Positions 9,675 through 60,799 of a stretch of DNA of 64,000 bases are shown here, in pieces. Position 1 is the stretch's first letter. Every line of letters begins with the position of its first letter. This stretch comes from Armatimonadota bacterium (GTDB lineage: Bacteria > Sysuimicrobiota > Sysuimicrobiia > Sysuimicrobiales > Humicultoraceae), in contig VGFA01000006.1 in NCBI GenBank assembly GCA_016869025.1, forward strand, positions 16,065-80,064, read 5' to 3'. The notes under the pieces are model-generated. The model had not been told where the DNA came from. It saw only the letters and a program-made list of their open reading frames with translations, and did not search any database. The translations under genes were made by a program, and so were the position numbers.

Positions 9675-10537
9675 ATGAACGCGAAGACGGCATTGCTGCT
9701 AACCCGGAGGGCGTTCGTCAGGCCGCTGGGGCTGGCGCTGGGGGGCCTGGGGCTGGGGAGTGTGTGGCTTTGGGACTCCGGATCGCACCGGCAACTGTGG
9801 CCGGGCGTACAGCAGGCCGGGGCCACCCAACCCGAGGCCATGCGGGCAGGAGATTGGGACGCACGAACCTCATGGTCTCGGTGGTCGGGTTCGGGGGAGG
9901 GGTCATCGGTTTCCCGTAGCAGATACCCGTACTGCAAGAAGCGATCAAAGGTGCGCGGGAAAGGGTCTACATTGCCACCAAGACCCAACAGCGTCTGGCC
10001 GAAGGCGCGGCACGCGAAATAGAGGAGAGCCTCAGACGGCTTCAGGTCCAGAAGATAGACTTGCTTCAGATGCACGCTGTAGGGTCCTTTGTGGGGCTGG
10101 AGGCCATTCTTCATCCAGGCCGCGGCACCTTGCTCGCCGCGCGCGAGTTCCAGAGGCAGGGCAAGATCGGGTTCGTCAGGATCACGGCAGCCCACAGCCC
10201 CATTGACAGCAGAGAGCCGCGCCCCCCGGAGGTCATCCAGCAAGAGCTCGCGGTAATGGCCGAGGCGGTCCGGACCGATCAGCTCGATACCATGATGCTG
10301 AGCTACCACATCGAGTGGCAGGGGGAGCCGGTTCGGCGGCTCATCGAGCTAGCCAGGGAGCGTGACGTCGGCGTAATCGTCAAGAGACCCCTGAGTGTAG
10401 GCAGGTTGATGGCGCAATACGGCGCCAGTCGCCTGATACGTTTCGTCCTTGAGAACCCGGATGTTCACACGGCGATCCCCGGCATGGCCAGGATCGAGCA
10501 CGTCTACGAGGATGTGCCTCGGGGCTATGAGGCCTGA
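9675..10537 (+). pseudogene. Aldo/keto reductase with Tat-type signal; frameshifted and carrying an in-frame TAG
   Basis: Three pieces support this. A Tat-like leader MNAKTALLLTRRAFVRPLGLALGG sits in one frame from 9675. The AKR start RRLGRTNLMVSVVGFGG sits in another frame and ends at TAG 9917-9919. The same frame then continues QIPVLQEAIKGARERVYIATK...IEESLRRLQVQKIDLLQMHAV... to 10537. Confidence 0.65.
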
Positions 10538-10601
10538 GGTGAGGGGACAGCCACCAAAACTGGCAGCAGCGGGCGTCTCCTTCCTCCCGCCCTAAGCCCC
10601 A

Positions 10602-11582
10602 TCAGCCCTCCAACCTCTTCGTGAACGTCACCCACGCCGGCATGCGCACGAACCCAAACTTGGCGTTGATTGCCAGCATGGCCTCGTTGTGGCTGCTGTT
10701 GAACGTGCGGATCACCCGGTAGCCCCGCTCCTGAGCGTATGCGATCGTCGCCGCCTTCAACGCCACCGCGATTCCCTGCCCGCGGTAGGCCGGGAGCACC
10801 GCGGTGAGTTGCTGGTGGAGCAGGCCCGGATCGCCATCGCTGCGCTTGAGCGCGCTTTCGCCGACGTAGAGGTCTCCCATCTTGGCAAGGAAGAAGGCGT
10901 CGGGCAGCACCCGTGGATGGCGGACCTCCTGGGCCAGGAACTCCTCTTGCGTGGGCGGCGTGGGCGGTTCGGGGTCGTCGCCGGGCACTCCCATGTCCAG
11001 GACGCAGTGCGCCTGGTAGACGGCTTCCAGGCAGTTCGTGTCGCGGCGGAGTTCCTCTTGCAGCGTCGTGATTGTAACTCCAAGCCGGGCCGCGCGCTCC
11101 TGGTAGTCGCGGAACCGGTCCAGGTTGACGCCGGCGACATCCAGCCGTGACTCGAACTCGCGCGCCTGCTCGACGAACTCGTAGCGCTGCAGGAATGCGA
11201 CGGCGCGGCTCCGATCTTCGCGCGTCCAGGCCTTGAGCCGGCGCCCGCCATGGGCCATGACCGCGGACAGGATCTCATCCATGAGCCGGCTGCCGATGCC
11301 CCGGCCCTGATGATCGGGATGGACGTTCACGAAGGAGAAGAACTTCTCCGGGTGATGCGCCCAGGGGACGTGGCGGTAGCCGCCGTAGGCGACCACCTCA
11401 TCCCCACCGGTGGTGGTCGCCACCATCCACTCTGAGATGTAGCGCCTCCGGTCGATCCTGGAGATCTCGTGCCGGACCTCGTCCACGGTGGTGGGCACGT
11501 CCGGGTTGATCGCGTTGTGGATCCGAACCAGCGCCGGAAGGTCGGCCTCGCTCAGTTCCCGAACGATTGTCTCTGCGACCAT
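10602..11582 (-). CDS. GNAT-family N-acetyltransferase (two tandem GNAT domains)
   Basis: Two acetyl-CoA-binding motifs: HPDHQGRGIGSRLMDE and LPAYRGQGIAVALKAATIAYAQERG. Confidence 0.85.
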   Translation of the reverse strand: MVAETIVRELSEADLPALVRIHNAINPDVPTTVDEVRHEISRIDRRRYISEWMVATTTGGDEVVAYGGYRHVPWAHHPEKFFSFVNVHPDHQGRGIGSRLMDEILSAVMAHGGRRLKAWTREDRSRAVAFLQRYEFVEQAREFESRLDVAGVNLDRFRDYQERAARLGVTITTLQEELRRDTNCLEAVYQAHCVLDMGVPGDDPEPPTPPTQEEFLAQEVRHPRVLPDAFFLAKMGDLYVGESALKRSDGDPGLLHQQLTAVLPAYRGQGIAVALKAATIAYAQERGYRVIRTFNSSHNEAMLAINAKFGFVRMPAWVTFTKRLEG

Positions 11583-11621
11583 TGCGCAGACATTCTATCA
11601 GGATCTACCGAGGAGGACACC

Positions 11622-12796
11622 GTGAACCACGCATCAATGAACGCCGCCGCCGCCCGACTTGCAGCGGCCACGTCCCATCGTGCCGAGGACGCGCTTCGTC
11701 TGCTCGAGACCCTGGTCAACATGGACACGGGCTCCCGCTCCCTGGAGGGTCTGTCCACGGCGGGAACCTGGATCCAGGAGCAACTTGAGGGCCTGGGCCT
11801 ATTGGTAGAGCGGCACGAGCACGCCGATGCCGGACCCACGCTGGTAGGCCGCAGGTCTGGGTCCGGGCGCCTCCGGTTGCTCTTCCTGGCGCATTACGAT
11901 ACCGTCTTTGACTCGGGCGAGCCCAGACACCGGCCGTTCCGCGTCGAGGCCGGGCGCGCCTTCGGGCCTGGAGTGGCGGACATGAAGGGCGGCATCGTCA
12001 CGCTGTGGGAGGCGCTGCGGGCCCTGAACATGGAGGGCTGGGACGACTTCGCGACGCTGACTGTAATCCACAACGCCGATGAGGAGGTTGGCTCACGGGC
12101 CTCTCGGGAGATCATCGAGCGCGAGGGCCGGAACTGCGACATCTGCCTGGTGCACGAGCCGGGCCGGCTCGACGGGTCGGTGGTCACGGCGCGCAAAGGC
12201 GTTGGCAGGTACGTGTTGACGGTGCACGGGAGGGCGGCCCACGCGGGTGTCAACCCGCAGGACGGCGCGAGCGCTGTCGTTGCCCTGGCGCGCAAGATCC
12301 TGGAGATCCACGCGCTCAACGATCCTGCCAGGGGTATCTCCGCCAACGCGATCGTGACCTCCGGCGGCACCCGCTCAAACGTGGTGCCCGACCTGGCCGC
12401 GGCCGAGATTGACCTGCGGCTGCCCACCGCCGCGCTCGGGGCGGAGGCAATCGCGCGGCTGGAGGAGATCGCGCAGGTCCAGCACCTGCCCGGCACGCAC
12501 GCAACGCTCTCCGGCGGGGTCAACAGGCCGCCGTTTGAGGCCGGGCCGGGCGGGCTCGCGCTGTTCGGCCTGGCGCACGAGGCCGCCGGTATCCTGGGGT
12601 TCCCGCTGACCGCGGCGACGACAGGCGGCGGTTCCGACGGTAACTTCATCGCACCCCTTGGGGTGCCTGTGCTCGACGGCATGGGCGCGGTGGGTGGTGG
12701 ATACCACGGCCCAGATGAGTACCTGGAACTCGCCACGCTGCCGCAGCGCACGGCGCTGACGGCGCTGCTCGTGTGGGAGGTCTGCCGCAGGAGGGC

Positions 12797-48645: not shown

Positions 48646-49461
48646 ATGTTGCACAAGGTCGCTGGTATCTCGAGGAAGGGCCGGGACGAACTCGCGCTGG
48701 TGGCGGGTCGGGGGAGGAGATTGGTGTCCGTTTCGGAGGCCGCCAGCGCTCTCAGGGTGGACAGGCAGGCGGCAGCCCGGAAGTTGGCGCTATGGGCTGA
48801 GGAAGGTTGGCTCCGACGTGTGAGGCGCGGTCTCTACATCCCTGTTCCTGTGGAGGCTCAGGATCCCCGTTCCTGGTCCGAAGACCCGTTCGTCTTGGCA
48901 GATGCCGTCTGGAGTCCCTGCTATTTCACTGGCTTGACAGCCGCGAACCACTGGGGGCTTACGGAGCAGATCTTCCGAACCACCGTGCTCAAGACAGTCC
49001 GCCGGGTGCGCTCCTCCCGCGAGCGTTTCCTCGATCACGAGTACCTCGTCGCGCACATCCCCGAGCGCCTGATGGACTGGGGCCTCCGGCCCATCTGGCG
49101 AGAGGAGCGACGGGTGTGGATTGCCGACCCTGCTCGCACAGTCACAGAGATCCTCGACGCCCCCCTGCTTGGAGGCGGCATTCGTCAGGTCGCCGAGATC
49201 GTTGCCGCGTACCTGAACGAGCACGACTGGAAGACCTTGGTCGAGTACGGGGATCGTCTTGGGAACCGCGCCGTATTCAAGCGGCTCGGCCACCTGGTGG
49301 AGACGGCAGGCCTCGGGAAGCCCGGGTTAGTGGCGATGTGCCGGGACCGGATCTCTACGGGTGTATCTCTGCTCGATCCGAACGGCCCAGCGGGCGGCAA
49401 GCGAGTGGCAGAGTGGGGCATCCGGGCTAACGTCCAGGTCCCTCGGCACGGGGCTTCATGA
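48646..49461 (+). CDS. abiEi: AbiEi-family antitoxin/transcriptional regulator (type IV TA)
   Basis: N-terminal wHTH (VSVSEAASALRVDRQAAARKLALWAEEGWLRRVRRGLY) and C-terminal AbiEi domain (PARTVTEILDAPLLGGGIRQVAEIV). ATGA overlap with the toxin gene. Confidence 0.85.
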   Translation: MLHKVAGISRKGRDELALVAGRGRRLVSVSEAASALRVDRQAAARKLALWAEEGWLRRVRRGLYIPVPVEAQDPRSWSEDPFVLADAVWSPCYFTGLTAANHWGLTEQIFRTTVLKTVRRVRSSRERFLDHEYLVAHIPERLMDWGLRPIWREERRVWIADPARTVTEILDAPLLGGGIRQVAEIVAAYLNEHDWKTLVEYGDRLGNRAVFKRLGHLVETAGLGKPGLVAMCRDRISTGVSLLDPNGPAGGKRVAEWGIRANVQVPRHGAS

Positions 49462-50636
49462 TTCCCCCAGGTGAGATCCGCGCGCTGCGGGCCGAGTGGC
49501 GGCTCCGGGACGACATCATCGAGAAGGACTACGTCCTGGGCTGGCTGCTCGCCGGCATCGCAACGGATCCAGCGCTCTCGGCCACCTGGGTGTTCAAGGG
49601 CGGCACCTGCCTCCGGAAGTGTTACTACGAGACATTCCGGTTCTCCGAGGATCTCGACTTCACAATTGTCGGAGGTGGCCCGGAAGAGCCGAACGAGCTC
49701 CTCCTGGCGTTCAGGCGGATCGGCGAGTGGCTCTTAGACCGATCGGGCATTGAGCTCGTGCCTGACGAGCAGTCCTTCACCAGGCAGAGAAACCTCCGAG
49801 GGAACCCGACAACCCAAGGCCGGATCGCCTTCCGGGGGCCAATCCGATCACCCATGCCCCCGAAGGTCAAGCTTGATCTCACGAGCGACGAGGTCGTCGT
49901 GGAAGCACCGGTTCGTCGCCCCATATCACACCCCTACAGCGACGGCGCGCTCCCGGTGGTAGACGGCGTCCTCTGCTACTCGATCGTGGATCTCATGGCC
50001 GAGAAGATTAGGGCTCTCGCTGAGCGGTGCAGGCCGCGGGACCTCTACGATGTCGTCCACCTGTACAGGTATCCCGACCTCAGGGAGCGCGCGGCTGCTG
50101 TGTCGGCCGCGCTCAGCCGAAAGTGCACACATGTCGGGATCCCGGTGCCCACCGCTGAGACGATCCGGTCATCGCCGTACCGAGAAGAGGTCGAGATAGA
50201 GTGGCACAACATGCTGGCCCACCAACTGCCTCACCTGCCACCGTTCGCAGAGTTCTGGGCCGCCCTGGACGAGGTCTTCGCATGGGTGCGAGGTGAGTGG
50301 GCGGTCCCCACTCACCGCCGAGCCGAGATCGGCGATCTGCATGCCAGCTGGATGCCCCCGCGTGCGATGGCCTCGTGGCGGCGCGGTGCGCCACTCGAAC
50401 TGATCCGGTTCGCCGGCGCGAACCGCCTGAAAGTCGAGATCGACTACCGTGCCGAAGCGGGCCGGCAAGGCCCTCGCGTTGTCGAGCCGTACTCGCTCCG
50501 GATGACGAAGGACGGCAACCTCGTGCTCTTTGTTGTCAACGACCGGGGCCAGCTCAGGGGCTACCGGGTCGACAGGATCGCTGGCGCGCGCGTCACGGAG
50601 GCGCCGTTCCAGCCCCGGTACCTTGTCGAGTTCTGA
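49458..50636 (+). CDS. abiEii: AbiEii/AbiGii (DUF1814) nucleotidyltransferase toxin with C-terminal WYL-like domain
   Basis: IEKDYVLGWLL, FKGGTCLRKCY...RFSEDLDF (NTase motif) and KIRALAERCRPRDLYD. An extra ~90-aa tail reads LKVEIDYRAEAGRQGPRVVEPYSLRMTKDGNLVLFVVNDRGQLRGYRVDRIAGARVTEAPF (WYL pattern). Confidence 0.85.
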   Translation: MIPPGEIRALRAEWRLRDDIIEKDYVLGWLLAGIATDPALSATWVFKGGTCLRKCYYETFRFSEDLDFTIVGGGPEEPNELLLAFRRIGEWLLDRSGIELVPDEQSFTRQRNLRGNPTTQGRIAFRGPIRSPMPPKVKLDLTSDEVVVEAPVRRPISHPYSDGALPVVDGVLCYSIVDLMAEKIRALAERCRPRDLYDVVHLYRYPDLRERAAAVSAALSRKCTHVGIPVPTAETIRSSPYREEVEIEWHNMLAHQLPHLPPFAEFWAALDEVFAWVRGEWAVPTHRRAEIGDLHASWMPPRAMASWRRGAPLELIRFAGANRLKVEIDYRAEAGRQGPRVVEPYSLRMTKDGNLVLFVVNDRGQLRGYRVDRIAGARVTEAPFQPRYLVEF

Positions 50637-50725: not shown

Positions 50726-53557
50726 GTGGGCATGAACCCCGAACAGGAAGCGCGCCAGCGAATTGACGACCTGTTGACCCGGGCCGGCTGGGCCGTGCAG
50801 GATGCCGGCGCCGTCAACCTGTACGAGCGCCGCGGAGTCGCCGTGCGCGAGGTCGCCCTCAAGACCGGCCACGGCGAGGCCGACTACCTGCTGTACGTGG
50901 ACGGCAGGGCTGCCGGCGTAGTCGAGGCCAAACGAACGGGTTCTACTCTCACAGGTGTTGAGCCACAGTCCAAAAGATACAGCGAAGGGCTCCCAGACGA
51001 CCTGCCTGCCTGGCGGCGACCTCTCCCCTTCCTCTATGAGAGCACTGGGGTCGAGACCCGGTTCACCAGCGGCCTTGATCCCGACCCGCGCAGCCGCCAG
51101 GTGTTCGCGTTCCACCGGCCGGAGACCCTGGCCGAGTGGCTGGCCATCCCTGGGACGGTGGCCGAAGCGCGGCTCCGCGAGGAGTTGAAGGCGGCAGAGG
51201 AACGCGAGATCTACGTCGCGCTTCCCACACTGCGCCACGGTCTCAGGATGATGCCTCCGCTGAACCCGCGAGGGCTGTGGTCGGTACAGGCTCAGGCAAT
51301 CCAGAACCTGGAAGCGTCTTTGGCACGGGACCACCCCCGTTCCCTGGTTCAGATGGCCACGGGCAGCGGGAAGACGGTCATGGCCGCTCACCTGGTCTAC
51401 CGGCTCGTCAGGCACGCCGGCGCCGGGCGCGTCCTCTTCCTCGTGGACCGCAGCAACCTCGGCCGCCAGACTCTGCGCGAGTTCCAGGGCTTCGTCAGCC
51501 CCGACGACGGCAGGAAGTTCACCGAACTCTACAACGTGCAGCACCTCCAGTCCAACCGCATCGACCAGGTGAACCGCGTCTGCATCGCCACCATCCAGCG
51601 CATCTATTCGATGCTGAAGGGGGAGGAACTGGATCCGGAACTGGAAGAGCAGTCCGCCTTCGAGATGCTGCCGCTCCGAAAGGAACCTGCCCCCGTCGAG
51701 TACAATTTAGATATCCCCATCGAGACCTTCAACGTCATCATCACCGACGAGTGCCATCGTTCCATCTACAACCTCTGGCGGCAGGTGCTGGAGTACTTCG
51801 ACGCTTTCCTCATCGGCATGACGGCCACGCCATCGAAGCAGACCCTGGGCTTCTTCAACCAGAACCTGGTCATGGAGTACAGTCACGAGCAGGCCGTCGC
51901 CGACGGCGTGAACGTGGACTTCGACGTCTACCGCATACGCACGGAGATCACCGAACGCGGCTCCAAGGTTGAGGCCGGGTACTACGTAGACCGCCGCAAC
52001 CGCCAGACGCGCGCCGTGAGGTGGGAGCAGCTCGACGAGGACCTCGTGTACGCCCCCAATCAACTGGACCGGGACGTGGTGGCTCCCGACCAGATTCGCA
52101 CGGTCATCCGCGCCTTCCGTGATCGACTTTCTACTGAGATCTTTCCCGGACGTTCCGAAGTACCCAAGACGCTCATCTTCGCGAAGGACGACAGCCACGC
52201 CGATGACATCGTGCAGATCGTGCGGCAAGAGTTTGGGCGCGGCAACGAGTTCGCCCAGAAGATAACCTACAAGACGACCGGCGCGAAACCCGAGGACCTG
52301 CTGCAGGCCTTTCGCACTTCCTACTTCCCACGCATCGCCGTCACCGTGGACATGATCGCCACCGGCACGGACATCCGCCCCCTGGAGGTCGTCCTCTTCA
52401 TGCGGAACGTCCGCAGCCGCAACTTCTTCGAGCAGATGAAGGGCCGCGGTGTGCGGATCATCTCCTCCACCGAGTTCCAGTCCGTCACCCCCGACGCCGC
52501 CCACAAGACCCACTTCGTCATCGTAGACGCGGTGGGTGTGACAGAGCAGAACCTCTCCGACTCCTACTCCCTGGAGAAGCAGCCTACCATCCCCTTCGAG
52601 AAGCTGCTGGACGCGGTGGCCATGGGCAACCGGGAGCCGGAGGTCCTCTCCTCCCTGGCCAGCCGGCTGGCACGCCTGGACCGCCAGCTCACGGTTTCGG
52701 ATCGGCGCGCTCTCCAGGACGTGGCTCAGGGTCTGGCTCTCAAGGAGATGACTTCCGCCCTGCTCAAGGCTGCGGACCCGGACGCCGTGCTTGACGCCGC
52801 CCGCCAGGCGACGGGCCAGGACGAACCGCCGGAAGAAGCCGTTGCACGGGCGCGGAGGGACCTCGCGGAGGCGGCTGCCCGCCCACTCGCCGCCAACCCA
52901 GAACTGCGCCAGCGTCTCATCGACATTCGACGGTCGTACGAGCAGATGATCGACACCGTCAGCCAGGATCGTCTCGTGGAAGCCGGTTACTCCGCTGACG
53001 CCACCGACCGCGCCCGGGCCCTGGTGCGGTCCTTCCAGGAGTTCATCGCACAGCACCGCGATGAGATCACTGCCCTGCAGGTCCTCTACAGCCGGCCCTA
53101 TCGGCAGCGCCTGACCTACCGGGATATCAGGGGCCTTGCCGACGCCTTGCAGATGCCTCCCAGGGCGCTGACGCCTGACCGGCTGTGGGCTGCGTACCAG
53201 CAACTCGACCGATCCCGCGTGCGCGGATCCGGCCATCGGATGCTGGCTGACATTGTTTCTCTGGTGCGCTTCGCGATCGGCCAGGACGCGGAGTTGGTCC
53301 CATTTGCCGACCATGTGCGGGAGCGGTTCGATACCTGGCTGGCGGTCCAACAACTGATGGGTCGCGCCTCCACGGCCGAGCAGCGCCGCTGGCTGGAAGC
53401 CATCCGCGACCACATCGCGGGCAGCGTGAGCATGGGGCTGGAGGACTTTCAGTTGTCACCCTTTGACCAGCGGGGAGGCCTGGGCCGGGCCTACGCCCTC
53501 TTCGGGAAGGAGTTGGAGGCGCTGCTGGACGAGTTGAACCGGGAGTTGGTGGCATGA
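50726..53557 (+). CDS. hsdR: Type I restriction enzyme R subunit (EcoEI/type IB-like C-terminal domain)
   Basis: N-terminal PD-(D/E)xK nuclease (GEADYLLYVDGRAAGVVEAKR), helicase motif I MATGSGKT, motif II TDECHRS, and a C-terminal EcoEI-R-like tail. Confidence 0.9.
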   Translation: MGMNPEQEARQRIDDLLTRAGWAVQDAGAVNLYERRGVAVREVALKTGHGEADYLLYVDGRAAGVVEAKRTGSTLTGVEPQSKRYSEGLPDDLPAWRRPLPFLYESTGVETRFTSGLDPDPRSRQVFAFHRPETLAEWLAIPGTVAEARLREELKAAEEREIYVALPTLRHGLRMMPPLNPRGLWSVQAQAIQNLEASLARDHPRSLVQMATGSGKTVMAAHLVYRLVRHAGAGRVLFLVDRSNLGRQTLREFQGFVSPDDGRKFTELYNVQHLQSNRIDQVNRVCIATIQRIYSMLKGEELDPELEEQSAFEMLPLRKEPAPVEYNLDIPIETFNVIITDECHRSIYNLWRQVLEYFDAFLIGMTATPSKQTLGFFNQNLVMEYSHEQAVADGVNVDFDVYRIRTEITERGSKVEAGYYVDRRNRQTRAVRWEQLDEDLVYAPNQLDRDVVAPDQIRTVIRAFRDRLSTEIFPGRSEVPKTLIFAKDDSHADDIVQIVRQEFGRGNEFAQKITYKTTGAKPEDLLQAFRTSYFPRIAVTVDMIATGTDIRPLEVVLFMRNVRSRNFFEQMKGRGVRIISSTEFQSVTPDAAHKTHFVIVDAVGVTEQNLSDSYSLEKQPTIPFEKLLDAVAMGNREPEVLSSLASRLARLDRQLTVSDRRALQDVAQGLALKEMTSALLKAADPDAVLDAARQATGQDEPPEEAVARARRDLAEAAARPLAANPELRQRLIDIRRSYEQMIDTVSQDRLVEAGYSADATDRARALVRSFQEFIAQHRDEITALQVLYSRPYRQRLTYRDIRGLADALQMPPRALTPDRLWAAYQQLDRSRVRGSGHRMLADIVSLVRFAIGQDAELVPFADHVRERFDTWLAVQQLMGRASTAEQRRWLEAIRDHIAGSVSMGLEDFQLSPFDQRGGLGRAYALFGKELEALLDELNRELVA

Positions 53558-54213
53558 ATAGGCTGTCGTGCGCTTACTGCGGAAGCAGCGTGTCGAGAGC
53601 CGACAGAGAGCATGTTGTCCCCCGGTGCCTCTATCCCGACTCCAAGAGGAGTTCGAAGGTTCAGCGGCTGACCGTCCCTGCCTGCAGATCCTGCAACACC
53701 AGTTGGTCTGACGACGAAGCGCATTTCCGCAATATGATGCTGATCGCAGGCGAACCGAACTCGTCGGTACAGGAGCTCTGGCAAACCAAGACACGGCGGA
53801 GTTTCCGGGAAGTCGACGGGCCACGGCGGATGCGGGACCTTCTCTTCCAGCTGAAACCCGTTGAGACTGCAGACGGGCTGAGGCACATGGTCTATCCGGC
53901 CAGCGATGAGCGAGTCATGCGAATCATCCGGAAGATCGTGCGGGGCCTTTGTCATCATCATTGCGTAGTGTCCCCTGTCCAGGACCAGCAGGTGCGGGCA
54001 CGCGTTCTGGAATACCTAGCACCCCCAGAGCTCCTGGACGAGATGAGCTACCACCACTTGGAAAAGGATGTCTTCGAGTATCGGTATGCGGTCCTCGATG
54101 AGCCGGAGATCAACTCCGCATGGCTGCTGACGTTCTTCGAGCGCCGGAAGTTCATCGCCACTGTGACTCCCCTGCAACCGCTCAGTGAGGCGAACGGTGA
54201 AACAGGTAACTGA
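53554..54213 (+). CDS. HNH-type endonuclease-like protein inserted between hsdR and hsdS
   Basis: CAYCGSSVSRADREHVVPRCLY...VPACRSCNTSWSDDEAHF is a Cys4 plus H-N-H arrangement. ATGA overlap with the hsdR stop. Confidence 0.7.
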   Translation: MNRLSCAYCGSSVSRADREHVVPRCLYPDSKRSSKVQRLTVPACRSCNTSWSDDEAHFRNMMLIAGEPNSSVQELWQTKTRRSFREVDGPRRMRDLLFQLKPVETADGLRHMVYPASDERVMRIIRKIVRGLCHHHCVVSPVQDQQVRARVLEYLAPPELLDEMSYHHLEKDVFEYRYAVLDEPEINSAWLLTFFERRKFIATVTPLQPLSEANGETGN

Positions 54214-55777
54214 AGCAAGCGAGCGCACCGAACCTGTCCCCAGGGCACAACTCCTGCCTCCAGGGTGGGTGTGGACTACTTTGGGAGAGGTTTGCCTGGT
54301 CAACCCAAGTACCATCGCCGGGCCTCTGGGAGACGACGTGCCAGTCTCCTTCGTTCCGATGGCCGCCGTTGAGACCGCCACTGGGCGAGTAGATGCAAGC
54401 CGGGTGCGACCCTACAGCGAGGTCGCGAGGGGCTACACACGTTTCTCCGAAGGGGATGTTCTGTTCGCCAAGATCACTCCTTGCATGGAAAATGGCAAGA
54501 TTGCGGTGGCCCGGGGTCTGACGAACGGCGCAGGTTGCGGATCAACAGAGTTCCATGTGCTCCGACCGTTGGGCCACGTTTCCAGCGAACTGGTCATGTA
54601 CTACCTGCTCCAAGACAACTTCCGAAAGGAAGCGCGCAGGCACATGGCCGGGACGGCAGGGCAACTGCGGGTGCCGGCTTGGTTTGTTAGCGAAGCGCCC
54701 TTTCCACTCCCACCTCTCCAGGAGCAGCACCGCATCGTCGCGGAGATCGACAAGCACCTCACCCGCCTGGATGCCGCCGTCGCCTCTCTCCAGCGAGCCC
54801 GGGCCAACCTGAAGCGCTACCGCGCCAGCGTGCTCAAGGCGGCGTGTGAGGGACACCTGGTGCCCACCGAGGCCGAGTTAGCCCGTCACGAGGGTCGGGG
54901 CTACGAGCCTGCCTCGGTGCTGCTGGAGCGCATCCTAGAGGAGCGCCGCGCCCGGTGGGTGGCTCATGGGAAGCGCCGTGGCAAGTACCGGGAATCCCAA
55001 CCGCTGGACACTTCCAATCTACCAGCGCTTCCTGAGGGCTGGGTGTGGGCCACGGTGGAACAGATTGGCTCTGTGGGTAGCGGGCACACGCCAAAGGGTG
55101 TTGCCGGATACATAACACCCTCTGGAGAGATACCCTGGTTCAGGGTTGGAGACATGAACTTGCCCGGCAATGAGCGGTTCATGAGGAATGGTACCGCTTT
55201 CGTCTCTTCAACAGATGCCGGGTTGCTGGGGCTTCGGGCATTTCCACCAGGGACTATCGTCTTCCCGAAGCGAGGCGGTGCAATCGTGACTAACAAGAAG
55301 CGCCAACTCGCACTTCCTAGCGCCCTTGATTTGAACACGATGGGAATTGTGCCTAGCCCTCTCGTCGCAGCCTACGTCTGGTGGTGGTTTCAGACAGTGC
55401 CTCTTGTAGCACTGCATGATGGTTCAAATGTGCCTCAGATCAACCATGACGACATTGCACCGTTGCTAGTGCCACTTCCGCCGCTCTCGGAGCAGCGCCG
55501 AATAGTCGCCGAGGTGGAGCGCCTCCTGGCCGTGATCCAGGCGGCGGCAGAGATGCTGGGGGCTAACCTGCAGCGCGCGGAGCGGCTGCGTCAGGTCGTC
55601 CTCCGACGCGCCCTTGAGGGGAAGCTCGTTCCCCAAGACCCCACCGACGTGCCGGCCTCCGTGCTGCTGGAGCGCATCCGCGCGGAAGAGGAACATGCGG
55701 GGAGGAACACCGAAAAGGCGAGACGAAAAGTCAGCCGCCGACAGAAGGCTGAGTTAGAAGGCCCAGCGGGGGCATGA
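54185..55777 (+). CDS. hsdS: Type I restriction-modification specificity subunit
   Basis: Two target-recognition halves, each starting LP(P/E)GW(V)W..LGEV/VEQI and each ending in a conserved helix (LPPLQEQHRIVAEIDKHL and LPPLSEQRRIVAEVERLL). The start is uncertain because of a 29-nt overlap with the HNH ORF. Confidence 0.9.
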   Translation: MRRTVKQVTEASERTEPVPRAQLLPPGWVWTTLGEVCLVNPSTIAGPLGDDVPVSFVPMAAVETATGRVDASRVRPYSEVARGYTRFSEGDVLFAKITPCMENGKIAVARGLTNGAGCGSTEFHVLRPLGHVSSELVMYYLLQDNFRKEARRHMAGTAGQLRVPAWFVSEAPFPLPPLQEQHRIVAEIDKHLTRLDAAVASLQRARANLKRYRASVLKAACEGHLVPTEAELARHEGRGYEPASVLLERILEERRARWVAHGKRRGKYRESQPLDTSNLPALPEGWVWATVEQIGSVGSGHTPKGVAGYITPSGEIPWFRVGDMNLPGNERFMRNGTAFVSSTDAGLLGLRAFPPGTIVFPKRGGAIVTNKKRQLALPSALDLNTMGIVPSPLVAAYVWWWFQTVPLVALHDGSNVPQINHDDIAPLLVPLPPLSEQRRIVAEVERLLAVIQAAAEMLGANLQRAERLRQVVLRRALEGKLVPQDPTDVPASVLLERIRAEEEHAGRNTEKARRKVSRRQKAELEGPAGA

Positions 55778-56553
55778 CCCATCGAGCGACAAAGCGCAGT
55801 CGCGGCCGACCAAATGCCGTCGAGGTACTCGTGGCGAAGGTCGAGCAGCAATTCGACCCACTCGTGCTGCCCGCCGCTCACGGTCACGCTGGGACGCAGG
55901 GGGCCCAGGAGCGCCTAACTGCAGCCCTGGAGAGCGTCAATAACGCCCTGCTGACCATGAGCCTCTCGCGGGCTGCCAACCGAGCTGTGCAGAAGAAGGA
56001 TCTTCGCGGGCGCCTGTCCGAGACTCAGCTCGACATTCTGCGGGCAGCCATCGCGTTTGCTGGTGCGGGCCTGGACGCCGCCCTGAAGAAGCTGATCAAG
56101 GATACAGTTCGGGACATCGCTCTCCGCATTCCCTCGGCACGGCGGAAGTTCCTGGACTTCATCGATCGGCACCTCGCCGCATCCGACCAACCCGTTGATC
56201 GGCGCCGGCTAGCAGAGATCCTTGTGGATGGCCGTGGCAGCCAAGCAGCCCTGTTGGAAAGCTACGAGCGGGAGCTCACCGGCGACAGCCTTCAGTCAGT
56301 CGATCAGGTCAACGTCGTCTGTGGAGCCCTGGGCATTGACACCCGCACGATCCGGGAGCGTCTGAAGCCCGGCGCCACGCTCGACCAGATGTTTAGGGCG
56401 AGAAACGACATCGTTCATCAGCTTGATCTAACAGACCGCGGCCGCAAGGCGCGAACGTTCACGGAAGTTCGCGAGTTCGCAATGGAGGCCCTCGCTGTCA
56501 CTCAGGAGATCATCAATGCAGTCGCCACGACGCTCGAGGAGAGGGTCCTCTAA
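55774..56553 (+). CDS. Hypothetical all-helical protein with HEPN-like Rx4H motif (RiboL-PSP/MAE-type HEPN candidate)
   Basis: 259-aa ORF with an ATGA overlap with the hsdS stop. FRARNDIVHQ (R210-H215, nt 56401-56418) fits the HEPN Rx4-6H signature near the C-terminus of a helical protein. The assignment rests on the motif only. Confidence 0.5.
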   Translation: MTHRATKRSRGRPNAVEVLVAKVEQQFDPLVLPAAHGHAGTQGAQERLTAALESVNNALLTMSLSRAANRAVQKKDLRGRLSETQLDILRAAIAFAGAGLDAALKKLIKDTVRDIALRIPSARRKFLDFIDRHLAASDQPVDRRRLAEILVDGRGSQAALLESYERELTGDSLQSVDQVNVVCGALGIDTRTIRERLKPGATLDQMFRARNDIVHQLDLTDRGRKARTFTEVREFAMEALAVTQEIINAVATTLEERVL

Positions 56554-56602
56554 GACGCGGGTTAGCCGCAGCCGTTGGAGGGACAAAGAGGGGTCGTGAC
56601 TC

Positions 56603-59251
56603 ATGCCTGAGCTCGAACTCAACACGCAGGATCTCCCAACGCACCTTACTCGCGTAGCCGCGCGCCTTCGACTGGTCGGTCCAGATGCCTCTGGGGACAC
56701 ATTCCTCCTGACGTCGTACCTTTTCGAAGCGTCGCTGAAGACCATCGCGATTGCCCTCTGGTCTGGCCTGCGCGGGAGTTCTGCCGAGAACGCGTACGCC
56801 GTCGCATACAGGCTCGTGCGGGCAGACGGTCTTGGCGAGTGGGAAGACTCGATCTACCAAATGAGTTCGCAGCCACTTGCGGGCTACCTGTCCCCGGTCT
56901 TCCAACCAACGATCAACTGGCTAACACAGAAACGCAAACCACCAGCGGACGATTGGTTTCTTGCCGCGATTGGTGCCTCGGACCGGATCATCTCCTTCTT
57001 GGGGTTGGAACCGGATAGCGACGTCAGCCGGTATCGCACCATACGCCACCTCTTGAAGTCATTGGTACTGATTCGGAACAAGACCAAGGCCCACGGAGCG
57101 GTTGGCCCTGAGTTCTTCCAGATGGCGAACCCGCACTACCTTACCGCGGTTTCTGCTATCGCAGTACGCTGCCCCCTGTTTAGGGCCCGCTGGATGCACC
57201 TGTCTATCCGGGTGTCGAAGAACACAGTCCGCGGGGTTGATTTGGTCGGGCCAGAACCCAGGCACATTCGAGACGCTGAATGCGAGGAGTTTTCGCCCAC
57301 GGTCCCAGGCGTCCACGTAGCGCTGGCAAGAGGCATTCAGCCCTTCTATGTAGGCGAATTCCTCAGAACAACGGTGGAGTGCAAGGCGTTCCTGCTCCCG
57401 AACGGCGGTTTCACTACTGCAAATGGCGCCGAGTTCATCGACTTCGCAAATGGGGAGACGGAAAGGCTTGACCTGCCTGCCTACGCGTTACCGCCTGCGC
57501 CGCTACCCCCAAGCGAGACAGAGGGTCTCCCAGACCTAGATATCCAGAGCAATGTGTTCGGGAATCTGCCACCGCGACCGCATGGGTATGTGGAGCGGCC
57601 GCAGTTGCAGGGCGATCTTCTCACACGCCTGCTCGACAGGAATCATCCGATCATCACCCTCCATGGGCGCGGAGGCATAGGGAAGACGAGCCTCGCATTG
57701 TGGGCCGCCCACGAGTTAGCTTCTCGTGCTGAGCCACCCTTCAGTTTCATCGTGTGGTTCAGTGCACGCGATGTCGACTTACGCCCGACCGGACCAGCGC
57801 CTGTGCGAACGGCCGTGGTCGATCTCAAGTCTGTCTCAAGGGTCTATGGAGCGATGTTTGCTACCAAACCCTCTGAGGATGCTTTCGCTCGGATGCTTCA
57901 GGCGCCGCAGCCCGATGGGACCGGACGGCTGCTCATCTTCGACAACTTCGAGACCTTCGCGGATTCCCGTCAACTCCACAGGTTTCTTGACACCCATACC
58001 CACCTGCCGAACAAGGTGCTGATGACTAGCCGGGAGCGGGCGTTCAAGGCCGACTATCCGATTGAAGTGCGTGGGATGGAACCGGCAGAGGCCAGGAGTT
58101 TGCTCGCGTCAGTCGGGAGAGAGTTGGGGATCGAGGGTCTGCTGAATGATGATGCCGTCGAGTCCATCTACAGGTACACAGATGGACATCCGTATGTCAT
58201 GCGGCTCGTCCTCGGAGAGATGGCCAAGGAACGCCGCTATGTACCTCCCAAGGATCTCCTGCCCAGAAGAATCGACATTGTGAATGCAGTGTTCGAGAGG
58301 TCATTCAACAAGCTGTCCCAGCATGGCAAGTGGGTGTACCTTCTGACCGCAAATTGGAGAACTGCCATCGCTGAGCTTGCTCTCGTTGTAATCTGCGCAG
58401 AGCGCGATGTCGACGCGGAGGCTGGTGCCGAAGAATGCGTGCGTCTCTCGCTTCTCACCGCCGAACAGACCCCGGCTGGGAGTTACTACTACTGGGCGCC
58501 TGAACTTGCACGCGTATTCGGACGGAAGAAGCTTGATAGTGACCCCGATCGCCTAGCCATCCAACAGGCCCTCGCAGACCTTCGGCGCTTCTGCGTGCTG
58601 AAGCCGGGACAGGTCGCCACTACCTCACACTCAGACGTTGTGAACCGCTTCCTCGAATCGGCTCTGGAGGATACCAGCTCCACCGACGCGCAGGAAATCG
58701 ATCGCCTGAACGGCATTCTCGAAAGGATTGCCGAGTTGTATCCACCGGCATGGGGACAAGTCGCCGCGTTCCGCAGGCACTTCAGACTGCCCGGCCAGGA
58801 CATCGAGTACGCCCTTCGTCGTTGGGTCGAAGAACAGCCGTTCGACAAGACCGCCTGGCTCCAGCGCGCCGAGTACGCACGGGAGGTCAGCGACCAAGAA
58901 ACCCAAATCTCCTCCCTCGTGAGCGCGGTTGACGCTGACCCGCGAGACATCTCACTCCTGCGTGATGCGGCCCTCGCTCTATGTCAGTTCATCGACGCCC
59001 GCAAGGCTGCGATCCCAAGGACGCGACGCGGGGTGTACCTGGCAGGGGTCCGAGACCATATGGAGAGGTCAGCCGGCGATCTTGACGCGACAGCCCTTAG
59101 CAGGCTTGCCTGGCTCTTTCTCCTCGAGGACAATCGCGAAAAGGCTCTCTACTACGCAAAGCTCGGACTCGACAAAGAGCCTGGTAACGAACACTGTCGA
59201 CGAATCGTGCAACGTCTCGAGCCGCAGGCGGGCCGTCCAACTCGGCGCTGA
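56603..59251 (+). CDS. STAND NTPase (NB-ARC-like) with N-terminal HEPN-like domain and C-terminal helical/TPR-like region
   Basis: Walker A HGRGGIGKTS (nt 57662-57691), Walker B LLIFDNFE (57929-57952), KVLMTSRE, and GHPYVMRLV (GxP motif). The N-terminal region has LIRNKTKAHG (R158-H164, nt 57074-57094). The last ~340 aa are helical repeats. Confidence 0.8.
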   Translation: MPELELNTQDLPTHLTRVAARLRLVGPDASGDTFLLTSYLFEASLKTIAIALWSGLRGSSAENAYAVAYRLVRADGLGEWEDSIYQMSSQPLAGYLSPVFQPTINWLTQKRKPPADDWFLAAIGASDRIISFLGLEPDSDVSRYRTIRHLLKSLVLIRNKTKAHGAVGPEFFQMANPHYLTAVSAIAVRCPLFRARWMHLSIRVSKNTVRGVDLVGPEPRHIRDAECEEFSPTVPGVHVALARGIQPFYVGEFLRTTVECKAFLLPNGGFTTANGAEFIDFANGETERLDLPAYALPPAPLPPSETEGLPDLDIQSNVFGNLPPRPHGYVERPQLQGDLLTRLLDRNHPIITLHGRGGIGKTSLALWAAHELASRAEPPFSFIVWFSARDVDLRPTGPAPVRTAVVDLKSVSRVYGAMFATKPSEDAFARMLQAPQPDGTGRLLIFDNFETFADSRQLHRFLDTHTHLPNKVLMTSRERAFKADYPIEVRGMEPAEARSLLASVGRELGIEGLLNDDAVESIYRYTDGHPYVMRLVLGEMAKERRYVPPKDLLPRRIDIVNAVFERSFNKLSQHGKWVYLLTANWRTAIAELALVVICAERDVDAEAGAEECVRLSLLTAEQTPAGSYYYWAPELARVFGRKKLDSDPDRLAIQQALADLRRFCVLKPGQVATTSHSDVVNRFLESALEDTSSTDAQEIDRLNGILERIAELYPPAWGQVAAFRRHFRLPGQDIEYALRRWVEEQPFDKTAWLQRAEYAREVSDQETQISSLVSAVDADPRDISLLRDAALALCQFIDARKAAIPRTRRGVYLAGVRDHMERSAGDLDATALSRLAWLFLLEDNREKALYYAKLGLDKEPGNEHCRRIVQRLEPQAGRPTRR

Positions 59252-59308
59252 ACCAGAAGGCCGCTTAGAGCGGCCGCAGGTTACCGCGGACCGTTCGGAG
59301 GTGCGGGC

Positions 59309-60799
59309 ATGAGCACGGCCTCGGCTATCGGCCAGAAGTTGTGGAACTACTGCAACGTCCTCCGGGACGCCGGCCTCTCATACGGCGACTACCTGGAGCA
59401 ACTTACCTACCTGATCTTCCTCAAGATGATGCATGAGCGGGCGCAGCCGCCGTACTCGCTGTTGCCGGACTTCCAGCCCCCGCCCATCCCTGAAGGGTAC
59501 GACTGGCCGAGCCTCCTGGCCCGGGATGGCGACGAGCTGGAGACGCACTACCGGCATCTGCTGGAACGGCTGGGACGGGAGCAGGGTACCCTAGGGGTCA
59601 TCTTCCGCAAGGCCCAGAACAAGATACAAGATCCGGCGATGTTGCGCCGGCTCATCGTGGACCTCATTGATCGGGAGAACTGGTCAGCGCTCAGCGCCGA
59701 CGTGAAGGGCGACGCCTACGAGGCGCTACTGGAGCGCAACGCCCAGGACGTGAAGACGGGCGCGGGACAGTACTTCACGCCCAGGCCGCTCATCCAGGCC
59801 ATCGTGGACGTCATACGTCCTGCGCCGAGCATGACTATCTGCGACCCTGCCTGTGGCACCGGTGGGTTCCTTTTGGCCGCCCATGATTACATCGTCAGGC
59901 ACTACCCGCACATGGACCGCGGCCAGCGTGAAGAACTGAAATACCGCGCGCTATATGGCTGGGACATCGTGGAGGGCGTGGCGCGTCTGTGCGTCATGAA
60001 CCTGTACCTCCACGGCGTCGGCGGCGATGAGACGCTGATCAAGGTGGACGACAGCCTCCGGGCTCATCCGGGCACGGACTTCGATATGGTCCTGACGAAT
60101 CCGCCGTTCGGGAAGAAGTCCAGCCTGACTTTCGTGAACGGGGAGGGCGAGCAGGCCAGAGACACCCTGGTCGTCATCCGGGACGACTTCTCGGCGTCCA
60201 CGAGCAACAAGCAGCTCAACTTCCTCCAGCATGTGAGAAGCATTCTCAAGATCCACGGCCGGGCGGCCGTGGTCGTCCCAGACAATGTGCTCTTCGAGGG
60301 CGGCGCCGGGGAGACCATCCGCCGCCGGCTGCTCCACGAGTGCGACGTCCACACGCTGCTCCGCCTGCCCACGGGCATCTTCTATGCTCAGGGCGTCAAG
60401 GCCAACGTCCTCTTCTTCGACCGCAAGCCGGCCAGCCAAACCCCCTGGACCAAGACCCTCTGGATATATGACCTTCGTACCAACAAGCACTTCACCCTGA
60501 AGACCAATCCACTGACACGGGCTGATCTCGACGACTTCGTGGCCTGCTGCAATCCCGAGAACCGCCACGCCCGGAAGGAGACCGGGCGTTTCCGCCCATT
60601 CCCGTACGAAGAACTGGTGAAGCGCGACAAGGCGAATCTTGACATCTTCTGGCTCCGGGACGAGAGCGTGGAGGACTCCGCCAGCCTGCCCCCTCCCGAG
60701 GTGCTGGCTGAAGAGATAGTAGAGGATCTGCGCGCGGCCCTGGAGCAGTTTGAGGAAATCGGCGCAGACCTCGAGCCGAAGCCCTACCCCTCCGCTTGA
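59309..60799 (+). CDS. hsdM: Type I restriction-modification N6-adenine DNA methyltransferase subunit
   Basis: HsdM N-terminal domain (LWNYCNVLRDAGLSYGDYLEQLTYLIFLKM), AdoMet motif DPACGTGGFL, catalytic NPPFG. Confidence 0.95.
   Translation: MSTASAIGQKLWNYCNVLRDAGLSYGDYLEQLTYLIFLKMMHERAQPPYSLLPDFQPPPIPEGYDWPSLLARDGDELETHYRHLLERLGREQGTLGVIFRKAQNKIQDPAMLRRLIVDLIDRENWSALSADVKGDAYEALLERNAQDVKTGAGQYFTPRPLIQAIVDVIRPAPSMTICDPACGTGGFLLAAHDYIVRHYPHMDRGQREELKYRALYGWDIVEGVARLCVMNLYLHGVGGDETLIKVDDSLRAHPGTDFDMVLTNPPFGKKSSLTFVNGEGEQARDTLVVIRDDFSASTSNKQLNFLQHVRSILKIHGRAAVVVPDNVLFEGGAGETIRRRLLHECDVHTLLRLPTGIFYAQGVKANVLFFDRKPASQTPWTKTLWIYDLRTNKHFTLKTNPLTRADLDDFVACCNPENRHARKETGRFRPFPYEELVKRDKANLDIFWLRDESVEDSASLPPPEVLAEEIVEDLRAALEQFEEIGADLEPKPYPSA

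Follow-up and report, generated by a model that had tools for sequence, protein, structure and literature searches.

The locus described here lies within a 64,000-nucleotide (nt) stretch of contig VGFA01000006.1 (positions 16,065 to 80,064; assembly GCA_016869025.1) from an Armatimonadota bacterium, referred to below as the window, and its central element is a gene encoding an 882-amino acid (aa) protein of the STAND class of nucleoside triphosphatases (NTPases). This gene is a single long open reading frame (ORF) with an ATG start, located on the + strand inside a type I restriction-modification (R-M) operon (Table 1), with gaps of 49 nt to the gene upstream, which encodes a HEPN protein of the RiboL-PSP type, and of 57 nt to hsdM. 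An earlier note on this DNA had placed the gene between hsdS and hsdM; it does lie within the hsd operon, but it is not a direct neighbor of hsdS, as the 259-aa HEPN gene intervenes. As detailed below, the gene belongs to a large, uncharacterized, and probably antiviral family, whose NTPase core is secure and whose N-terminal domain carries a highly conserved HEPN-like motif pair.

Table 1. Features of the STAND gene and of the surrounding defense island (positions in the window; residues refer to the STAND protein unless another protein is named).
Feature	Position	Strand	Basis or remark
AbiEi antitoxin gene	48646-49461	+	
AbiEii nucleotidyltransferase gene, C-terminal WYL domain	49458-50636	+	directly upstream of hsdR
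Host operon hsdR/HNH-like/hsdS/HEPN/STAND/hsdM	50726..60799	+	one strand, overlaps or gaps of at most 57 nt
hsdR	50726-53557	+	
HNH-like ORF, 219 aa, Cys-rich, overlaps hsdR and hsdS	53554-54213	+	weak PADLOC PtuB (E 2.8e-5) and IscB-HNH matches
hsdS	54185-55777	+	
RiboL-PSP-type HEPN gene, 259 aa, independent	55774-56553	+	Pfam PF18735, 29.6 bits vs gathering score 28.4
STAND NTPase gene, whole ORF, 882 aa	56603..59251	+	ORF list; homolog search; AlphaFold2 (AF2) model
N-terminal all-helical domain, aa 1-194, HEPN-like candidate effector	56603..57184	+	AF2 model of aa 1-305
Ex3[KR] motif E42-A-S-L-K46, second helix	56726..56740	+	translation EASLK; alignments
Rx5H motif R158-N-K-T-K-A-H164, with N after R	57074..57094	+	translation RNKTKAH; alignments
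Small beta-rich domain, aa 195-295	57185..57487	+	strands at aa 196-290 in both AF2 models
Linker, aa 296-332, predicted disordered, LPPAPLPPSETEGL..NVFGNLP..YVER	57488..57598	+	pLDDT <50 at aa 299-317
Nucleotide-binding domain, aa 333-493	57599..58081	+	Pfam NB-ARC; invariant columns; Foldseek
Walker A GRGGIGKT	57665-57688	+	translation
Walker B LLIFDNFE	57929-57952	+	translation
Sensor-1 TSR	58025-58033	+	translation
ARC1 helical domain, aa 494-548, and winged helix, aa 549-665	58082..58597	+	AF2; Pfam NB-ARC to aa 535; Foldseek
GxP motif G528-H-P	58184-58192	+	translation
C-terminal TPR-like repeats, aa 666-875, about 11 helices, putative sensor	58598..59227	+	AF2; Foldseek (TPR proteins, 6mfv)
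hsdM	59309-60799	+	

The 882-aa ORF and the motifs quoted for it in the earlier note were borne out by the ORF list of the window and by direct translation, which verified each motif at the residue named for it. The protein contains EASLK (aa 42-46), RNKTKAH (aa 158-164), GRGGIGKT (aa 355-362), LLIFDNFE (aa 443-450), TSR (aa 475-477), and GHP (aa 528-530). Residues R158, N159, H164, K361, D447, R477, and G528 are invariant or at least 90% kept across 40 close homologs and 71 homologs from many phyla, and are therefore not chance features. Within the core, GRGGIGKT agrees with the Walker A consensus GxxxxGK[TS], with G355, G358, G360, and K361 invariant among the 71 homologs; LLIFDNFE has the hhhhDN form of Walker B, with invariant D447 and E450; and VLMTSR represents sensor-1, with invariant T475 and R477. 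The GHPYVM string, which had also been listed for the core, is present, but it is the GxP (GLPL-type) motif of ARC1 and should not be read as an MHD motif; it falls within helices modeled at aa 494-548, after which comes a winged-helix region of alpha/beta structure (aa 549-665). Among the invariant or at least 90% conserved columns of aa 549-665 in the 71 homologs we found no histidine of the MHD/LHD type. This winged-helix histidine contacts ADP in the AP-ATPase/NB-ARC clade, but it is absent from many bacterial STAND proteins too, and its lack carries little weight.

Profile searches pointed the same way. Pfam NB-ARC matches aa 339-535 with E 2.6e-5, a marginal pass at 24.0 bits against a gathering score of 23.5, whereas NACHT stays below its threshold (21.5 against 26.7 bits), AAA_16 and ATPase_2 are likewise weaker than NB-ARC, and the NCBIfam model FxSxx_TPR matches only the NTPase segment (E 1e-11), far under its family cut-off. 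A sequence search of the PDB with the protein gave P-loop noise only. A full-length AF2 model, built from a 40-sequence alignment, reached a mean predicted local distance difference test score (pLDDT) of 86.4, and resolves, from the N-terminus onward, a domain of helices at aa 13-194, one rich in beta strands at aa 196-290, a linker of low confidence at aa 299-317, the alpha/beta P-loop domain at aa 333-493, ARC1 and the winged helix, and about 11 TPR-like helices at aa 676-872. When this model was compared with the PDB by Foldseek, matches at E 1e-11 to 1e-5 included the STAND-TPR structure 6mfv (E 6e-11), Apaf-1, CED-4, plant NLRs and resistosomes (ZAR1, Roq1), Avs3 (8dgc), and EfAvs5 (9jap), and SAMD9 was matched too; the alignments to STAND proteins span 350-670 columns, and TPR proteins were matched as well. 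These structural matches make the NTPase assignment secure, and the core is of the AP-ATPase/NB-ARC clade of STAND NTPases, with Walker A, Walker B, sensor-1, and GxP intact. The NB-ARC-type core and the tripartite STAND layout proposed earlier are thus supported by Pfam, by the AF2 domain map, and by Foldseek, whereas the proposed "about 340 aa of helical repeats" needs correction: only about 210 aa at the C-terminus are TPR-like, and the rest, about 55 aa of ARC1 and about 115 aa of winged helix, belongs to the NTPase module.

Conservation is distributed unevenly along the protein. Among distant homologs, identity amounts to 47% in the linker, 41% in the P-loop domain, 33% in ARC1, 27% in the winged helix, 21% in the N-terminal helical domain, 20% in the C-terminal repeats, and 18% in the beta-rich domain, and the repeats are the most variable region across the family (entropy 2.56). 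The linker stretch LPPSETEG...NVFGNLP is the best conserved outside the P-loop domain although it is predicted to be disordered; its 47% identity holds among homologs whose overall identity is 26-33%, with S304, N321, P323, and R332 invariant. This conserved linker may fold on oligomerization or mediate autoinhibition. In the beta-rich domain, W197, G236, N267-G268, and E277 are conserved, and no structural match to it was obtained when the N-terminal model was searched with Foldseek against PDB and BFVD.

When 5.8 billion proteins were searched, at least 1,917 homologs were returned. Each of the best 120 is a full-length protein (about 860-950 aa) with 46-82% identity, and those that have names are called only "NB-ARC domain-containing", "TPR repeat", or "hypothetical". 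In addition, a scan of 185k genomes, one per species, yielded 145 confirmed stretches, of which the best 80 were kept as loci; they show 26-83% identity to the query, and most of them cover nearly its whole length, a minority being cut at contig ends. The relatives are distributed patchily over more than 10 phyla, including Acidobacteriota, Verrucomicrobiota, Chloroflexota (many Dehalococcoidia), Bacteroidota, Actinomycetota (Micromonospora, Nakamurella), Pseudomonadota (Alpha-, Beta-, and Gammaproteobacteria), Planctomycetota, Gemmatimonadota, and others. No phage-borne copies were found among 50,697 phage records. The family is not described in the literature searched, nor has any member been characterized experimentally there. 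A full-length member with 31% identity is located on the megaplasmid of Ralstonia solanacearum Po82 (NC_017575.1, positions 128253-130850); it is found in seven R. solanacearum megaplasmid records, beside an insertion sequence (IS) element (rve), and in PLSDB no annotation covers it. As a host, Ralstonia can be cultured and is genetically tractable.

The earlier note had considered LIRNKTKAHG the only recognizable feature upstream of the core. The Rx5H motif in it is real, but a second motif, Ex3K, had been overlooked. A separate AF2 model of aa 1-305 was obtained with high confidence (pLDDT 92.8; predicted template modeling score, pTM, 0.93), and we propose for the N-terminal domain a first helix at aa 13-25, a second at aa 30-59, an insert at aa 61-132, a third helix at aa 147-161, and a fourth at aa 168-189. 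According to the AF2 models, R158 and N159 close the helix at aa 147-161, H164 is in the loop that follows, and the helix at aa 168-189 comes next, while E42-x3-K46 lies within the helix at aa 30-59 and the helices of aa 61-132 stand between the two motifs. The RN-x4-H pattern is kept in 70 of the 71 full-length genome homologs and is invariant in our alignments A1 and A2. The Ex3[KR] pattern is present in 70 of the 71 too (68 with Ex3K and two, L033 and L038, with Ex3R; lost in one), with E42 and K46 invariant in alignments A1, A2, and A3. The R158/H164 motif remains nearly invariant down to about 26% identity, and E42, K46, R158, N159, and H164 make up 5 of the 13 invariant columns of the N-domain alignment, in which members from outside the subfamily are 19-27% identical to the query. 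The sole homolog missing either motif, from a Limisphaerales metagenome-assembled genome (L082; OZ244865.1, positions 9857-12541), is missing both together, and judged from its sequence may be a catalytically dead derivative.

These features agree with the description of HEPN domains by Anantharaman et al. (2013, PMC3710099), in which the residue after R is usually N, D, or H, an Ex3[KR] motif is found upstream, in helix-2, in many families, the RNase motif occupies a helix end and the loop before the last helix, and helical inserts occur between helices 2 and 3. Four HEPN descriptors therefore coincide in the N-terminal domain, namely Rx5H, N after R, the helix-end/loop position, and the upstream Ex3[KR], along with a helical insert between the motifs, and its topology agrees with the published description. 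On the basis of these motifs and of the models, a divergent HEPN domain is the best reading of the N-terminal domain, one to which we give a roughly even chance. A phmmer search with this domain against 1.84 billion representative proteins gave 292 matches, nearly all with the same architecture of about 870 aa. Stand-alone N-domain proteins were considered and rejected, as the short matches run into the linker and are fragments. Rare architectures do exist: one protein of 1067 aa (P0193) has a different STAND/TPR body, another of 1299 aa (P0133) has about 420 extra C-terminal repeat residues, and a third of 1078 aa (P0237) has an N-terminal extension of 220 aa.

Taken with the NTPase core, these observations suggest a self-contained, single-gene, Avs-like STAND system in which oligomers induced by a trigger would assemble an N-terminal HEPN-like RNase, a proposal that we favor tentatively and whose chance of being right we put slightly below even. 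The C-terminal repeats would bind a ligand derived from infection, most likely a phage protein; binding would lift autoinhibition and lead to nucleotide exchange and to oligomerization through the NTPase, which would gather the N-terminal helical domains. Acting as a divergent HEPN RNase, these would use R158, N159, and H164 as catalytic residues, aided by E42 and K46. HEPN enzymes act as dimers in which two Rx4-6H motifs are placed side by side. Since two adjacent motifs are needed, the N-terminal domain would be active only in the oligomer, where it would cleave cellular or phage RNA independently of metal and so abort infection. In the window, the gene itself has come to lie inside a type I hsd operon that has also taken up an HNH-like ORF and an unrelated HEPN gene of the RiboL-PSP type, within an island that also bears AbiE.

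Several results weigh against this proposal. At E up to 1, none of 38 diverse N-domains is matched by a HEPN model, or by the model of any other family, in Pfam, NCBIfam, or PHROGs. A profile search of PDB sequences with the N-domain found nothing. No HEPN structure was retrieved when the N-domain model was searched with Foldseek in PDB and BFVD; the best result (E 0.036, template modeling score at most 0.2) was FERM-domain noise, and no confident non-HEPN match appeared either, despite the confident model. Small helical bundles that carry large inserts are difficult for Foldseek. Alignment of the N-domain by hhalign to the family of the neighboring RiboL-PSP HEPN protein, whether in local, relaxed, or global mode, had a probability of 1.2-1.4% (P about 0.04), which is not significant, although the alignment sets both RN motifs in register. 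Moreover, the sensor, of about 210 aa, is short compared with those of characterized Avs proteins, PADLOC models of Avs1-5 and bNACHT remain unmatched, and about 80% of the loci have no obvious defense neighbor. The reading of Rx5H as a HEPN-type motif thus stands as far as conservation, position, and the Ex3K partner are concerned, whereas the HEPN fold is unmatched by hidden Markov models (HMMs), profiles, or Foldseek.

Alternatively, the protein could be a defense STAND whose N-terminal module is a new effector or adaptor, acting by binding of a nucleotide or small molecule, by membrane action, or by recruitment, with the conserved R, N, H, E, and K residues serving other chemistry or binding. 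The domain has no detectable relative in sequence or structure despite its pLDDT of 92.8, the N-terminal module is two-lobed (helical plus beta, pTM 0.93) and not a plain four-helix bundle, and Rx4-6H is a short motif. On the other hand, the coincidence of four independent HEPN descriptors, their weight among the invariant columns, and the joint loss of both motifs in L082 speak against an unrelated chemistry, and we regard this alternative, the main rival, as unlikely but still deserving serious attention.

A role in defense can be assessed from the neighborhoods of relatives. With crude gene calling, R-M-like neighbors within 4 kb were found in 14 of about 80 loci. For comparison, the null given by Lee et al. 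(2026, PMC13581612) for a random gene near a defense system is 1.53%; the observed frequency is about 10 times this value (binomial P = 2e-11), and so large an excess argues for a defense role, which is thus likely, as the earlier note had supposed. Among 115 nearest-neighbor ORFs from about 60 loci, Pfam and PADLOC identified ResIII (7), Methylase_S (4), HSDR_N (4), N6_Mtase (3), Eco57I (3), N6_N4_Mtase (2), GmrSD_N (2), MmeI_Mtase (2), PLDc_2 (2), HNH (2), and BrxL (1), together with integrases and IS200. All-against-all clustering of 630 neighboring ORFs gave a sole recurrent cluster, made of R-M methylases and helicases from 14 loci. No conserved partner gene was found by tblastn of the operon genes against more than 80 loci, by the clustering of the 630 ORFs, or by pairwise comparison of small upstream ORFs, those upstream of close relatives being unrelated to the RiboL-PSP HEPN gene and to one another.

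The remaining loci leave some room for a regulatory STAND of the MalT/AfsR type, or another housekeeping protein, that occurs in a defense island by chance. About 80% of the loci have ordinary metabolic or regulatory neighbors, the architecture is fixed, with no effector swapping, and within subfamilies both linker and C-terminus show good conservation; furthermore, defense and non-defense STAND clades are interspersed in the survey by Lee et al. (2026, PMC13581612). Yet the protein has no DNA-binding or other output domain, a nuclease-like motif is conserved in it, and the family occurs patchily across phyla as single copies next to IS elements and integrases, with the excess of R-M neighbors described above. 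A non-defense role is therefore improbable in our judgment.

A different question is whether the protein depends on the R-M system that surrounds its gene. By its position, the earlier note had likened it to PrrC, and in such a guard the HsdM/S/R complex would hold the STAND protein inactive until a phage anti-restriction protein disabled the complex. The arrangement in the window is compatible with this: the gene lies in the operon on the same strand, with short gaps and no terminator; an ortholog with 83% identity is again directly upstream of hsdM, with hsdS and the HEPN gene absent upstream; a Bacteroidota homolog is located after hsdR-hsdM-hsdS; and type I R-M genes are the most frequent neighbors of the family. 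However, R-M genes are near only about 15-17% of the family loci, and tblastn of the operon genes of the window detected HsdM-like proteins in 7 loci, HsdR-like proteins in 7, and HsdS in 1. Most loci have no hsd genes, including those of close relatives. The relative with 79% identity adjoins an IS110 element and the one with 70% identity is located between a HARE-HTH gene and an IS200-type gene, neither in an hsd operon; the one with 68% identity is beside unrelated genes, with a methylase 6 kb off; relatives at about 50% identity have housekeeping surroundings; and the Ralstonia copy adjoins a GGDEF gene and an IS element. The hsd neighborhood is limited to the locus of the window, L008, L062, and a few others; the order relative to the hsd genes varies, L008 lacking hsdS upstream; and unrelated defense genes often embed in hsd operons, this one also holding HNH and HEPN inserts.

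The comparison with PrrC and RloC themselves leads to the same conclusion. They resemble the arrangement in the window in joining an NTPase and a HEPN-type nuclease inside a type I hsd locus, but they consist of an N-terminal ABC-type ATPase and a C-terminal HEPN domain, whereas here the ATPase is of the STAND/NB-ARC class and the candidate HEPN domain is N-terminal. PrrC is characteristically linked to hsd genes and silenced by the R-M complex, according to the literature, and the STAND family lacks such consistent linkage. An obligatory PrrC-like linkage was accordingly rejected from the contexts of close and distant relatives, and the coupling suggested in the earlier note is not supported. 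The place of the gene inside the hsd operon is incidental to this lineage, functional dependence of the protein on the R-M complex is not likely, and we judge the guard model very unlikely, and an option for this locus alone.

The 259-aa gene that precedes the STAND gene, which had escaped the earlier note, starts in overlap with the hsdS stop codon and encodes a protein with a canonical RNx3H motif (R210-N-x3-H215) and a D101-x3-K105 motif. Its own family comprises 73 proteins, in which R210 and H215 are invariant and N211 is kept in at least 90%, and which elsewhere occurs as a lone gene beside integrases. As only 49 nt separate the two genes, which share a strand, and as HEPN enzymes are dimeric, the STAND protein could in principle be the sensor and switch of a two-gene system whose RNase effector, or heterodimer partner, is the neighbor. 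Nevertheless, tblastn detected no homolog of the HEPN gene in any of the 80 or more STAND loci, including that of the ortholog with 83% identity, and the small upstream ORFs of the other close relatives are unrelated to it. The two-gene system was rejected for lack of co-occurrence, we deem it extremely improbable, and the HEPN gene is an independent module and not a conserved partner. In both proteins an RN...H motif is preceded, at a distance of about 105-112 residues, by an acidic-x3-K motif, with a helical insert separating the two, but the RiboL-PSP family (PF18735) has Rx4H where the STAND N-domain has Rx5H, the hhalign comparison given above was not significant, and the families never co-occur elsewhere.

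The operon forms, with the AbiE genes, a defense island of about 12 kb whose GC content (0.59-0.65) is lower than that of its flanks (0.67-0.69), and which lies between a 3HCDH/ECH gene (3-hydroxyacyl-CoA dehydrogenase/enoyl-CoA hydratase) and a penicillin amidase gene. A scan of the operon for promoters and terminators gave nothing above chance, and the STAND gene is likely co-transcribed with the hsd genes. Eight nt past its stop codon there is a perfect GC-rich hairpin, GGCCGCTTAGAGCGGCC (positions 59259-59275). It has no T tract on the + strand and does not make a convincing terminator; in the space before hsdM it may serve RNA stability or processing. Like the HEPN gene, the AbiE pair and the HNH-like ORF are independent modules, and the HNH-like ORF may act as an accessory nuclease in the R-M operon.

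Among known systems, the protein is closest in organization to the Avs/AVAST proteins (Avs1-5, and Avs7, Avs8, and Avs10-24 of Lee et al. 2026, PMC13581612). Like them, it joins a putative N-terminal effector, a STAND NTPase, and TPR-like repeats in one polypeptide, it is associated with a defense island and distributed patchily in a manner suggestive of horizontal transfer, and it has Foldseek similarity to Avs3 and EfAvs5. It differs in three respects. First, the sensor measures about 210 aa (340 aa if everything after the P-loop domain is counted), below the threshold of the Lee et al. survey of 589 STAND clades (PMC13581612), which defined sensor clusters only where the C-terminal region reached 400 aa and would thus exclude this protein. 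Second, the N-domain is fixed across the family and not swapped. Third, the candidate effector is an RNase, whereas in the literature searched none of the characterized Avs effectors (nucleases, SIR2, others) is a HEPN domain and no experimentally characterized NB-ARC-type Avs has a HEPN effector. PADLOC-DB v2, covering Avs1-5, bNACHT, and PDC candidates, gave no match except TRIP13 P-loop noise, and the protein thus falls into none of the Avs or bNACHT families covered there. To Apaf-1, CED-4, and the plant NB-ARC NLRs the protein is related through Pfam NB-ARC, Walker A, the hhhhDN Walker B, TSR, GxP, and Foldseek matches at E 1e-9 to 1e-7, but its N-domain is not a CARD, coiled-coil (CC), or TIR domain, its sensor is TPR-like and not of the WD40 or LRR type, and identity is only about 15%.

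The idea of a HEPN effector on a STAND protein is not new in itself. Fusions of the HEPN-STAND-TPR(-S1) type were predicted in 2013 (Npun_F6454, MED222_16016, Desac_1927, and Bacillus cereus gi 229028907; PMC3710099), HEPN effectors are listed for bacterial NACHT proteins, and pairs of STAND proteins with HEPN effectors have also been described. What had been left unannotated is this family and its N-domain. The 2013 fusions have the same order of modules and are likewise a computational prediction of a regulated RNase; compared by description only, they differ in that their HEPN domains are detectable by profiles, whereas the N-domain here is unmatched by Pfam HEPN models, has Rx5H instead of Rx4H and a helical insert of 70 aa, and is followed by an extra beta domain. 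The protein is an Avs-like STAND with an unclassified N-terminal module, probably of HEPN type, and a compact sensor. A bolder view would make the family an unclassified, widespread type of bacterial NLR, with thousands of members in more than 10 phyla; its effector would be a new HEPN branch beyond structural recognition, coupled to the small beta domain and the conserved flexible linker, and its unusually compact sensor of about 200 aa would respond to something other than the large structural phage proteins that known Avs proteins sense. In lineages like this one it would be wired to a type I R-M operon as a fallback triggered once restriction has been disabled; as a whole, we see this as a long shot.

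The locus shows how type I R-M operons gather unrelated defense cargo, here an HNH-like ORF, a RiboL-PSP HEPN gene, and a STAND gene, and such cargo cautions against assuming a PrrC-like coupling for every insertion in hsd operons. As the family is missing from PADLOC, defense inventories of soil and freshwater bacteria would overlook it. If its N-domain is an RNase, the family would represent an NB-ARC-type bacterial NLR with RNA cleavage as output, and the domain would add to the HEPN proteins a branch that is invisible to current HMM and structure searches and would be useful for calibrating both.

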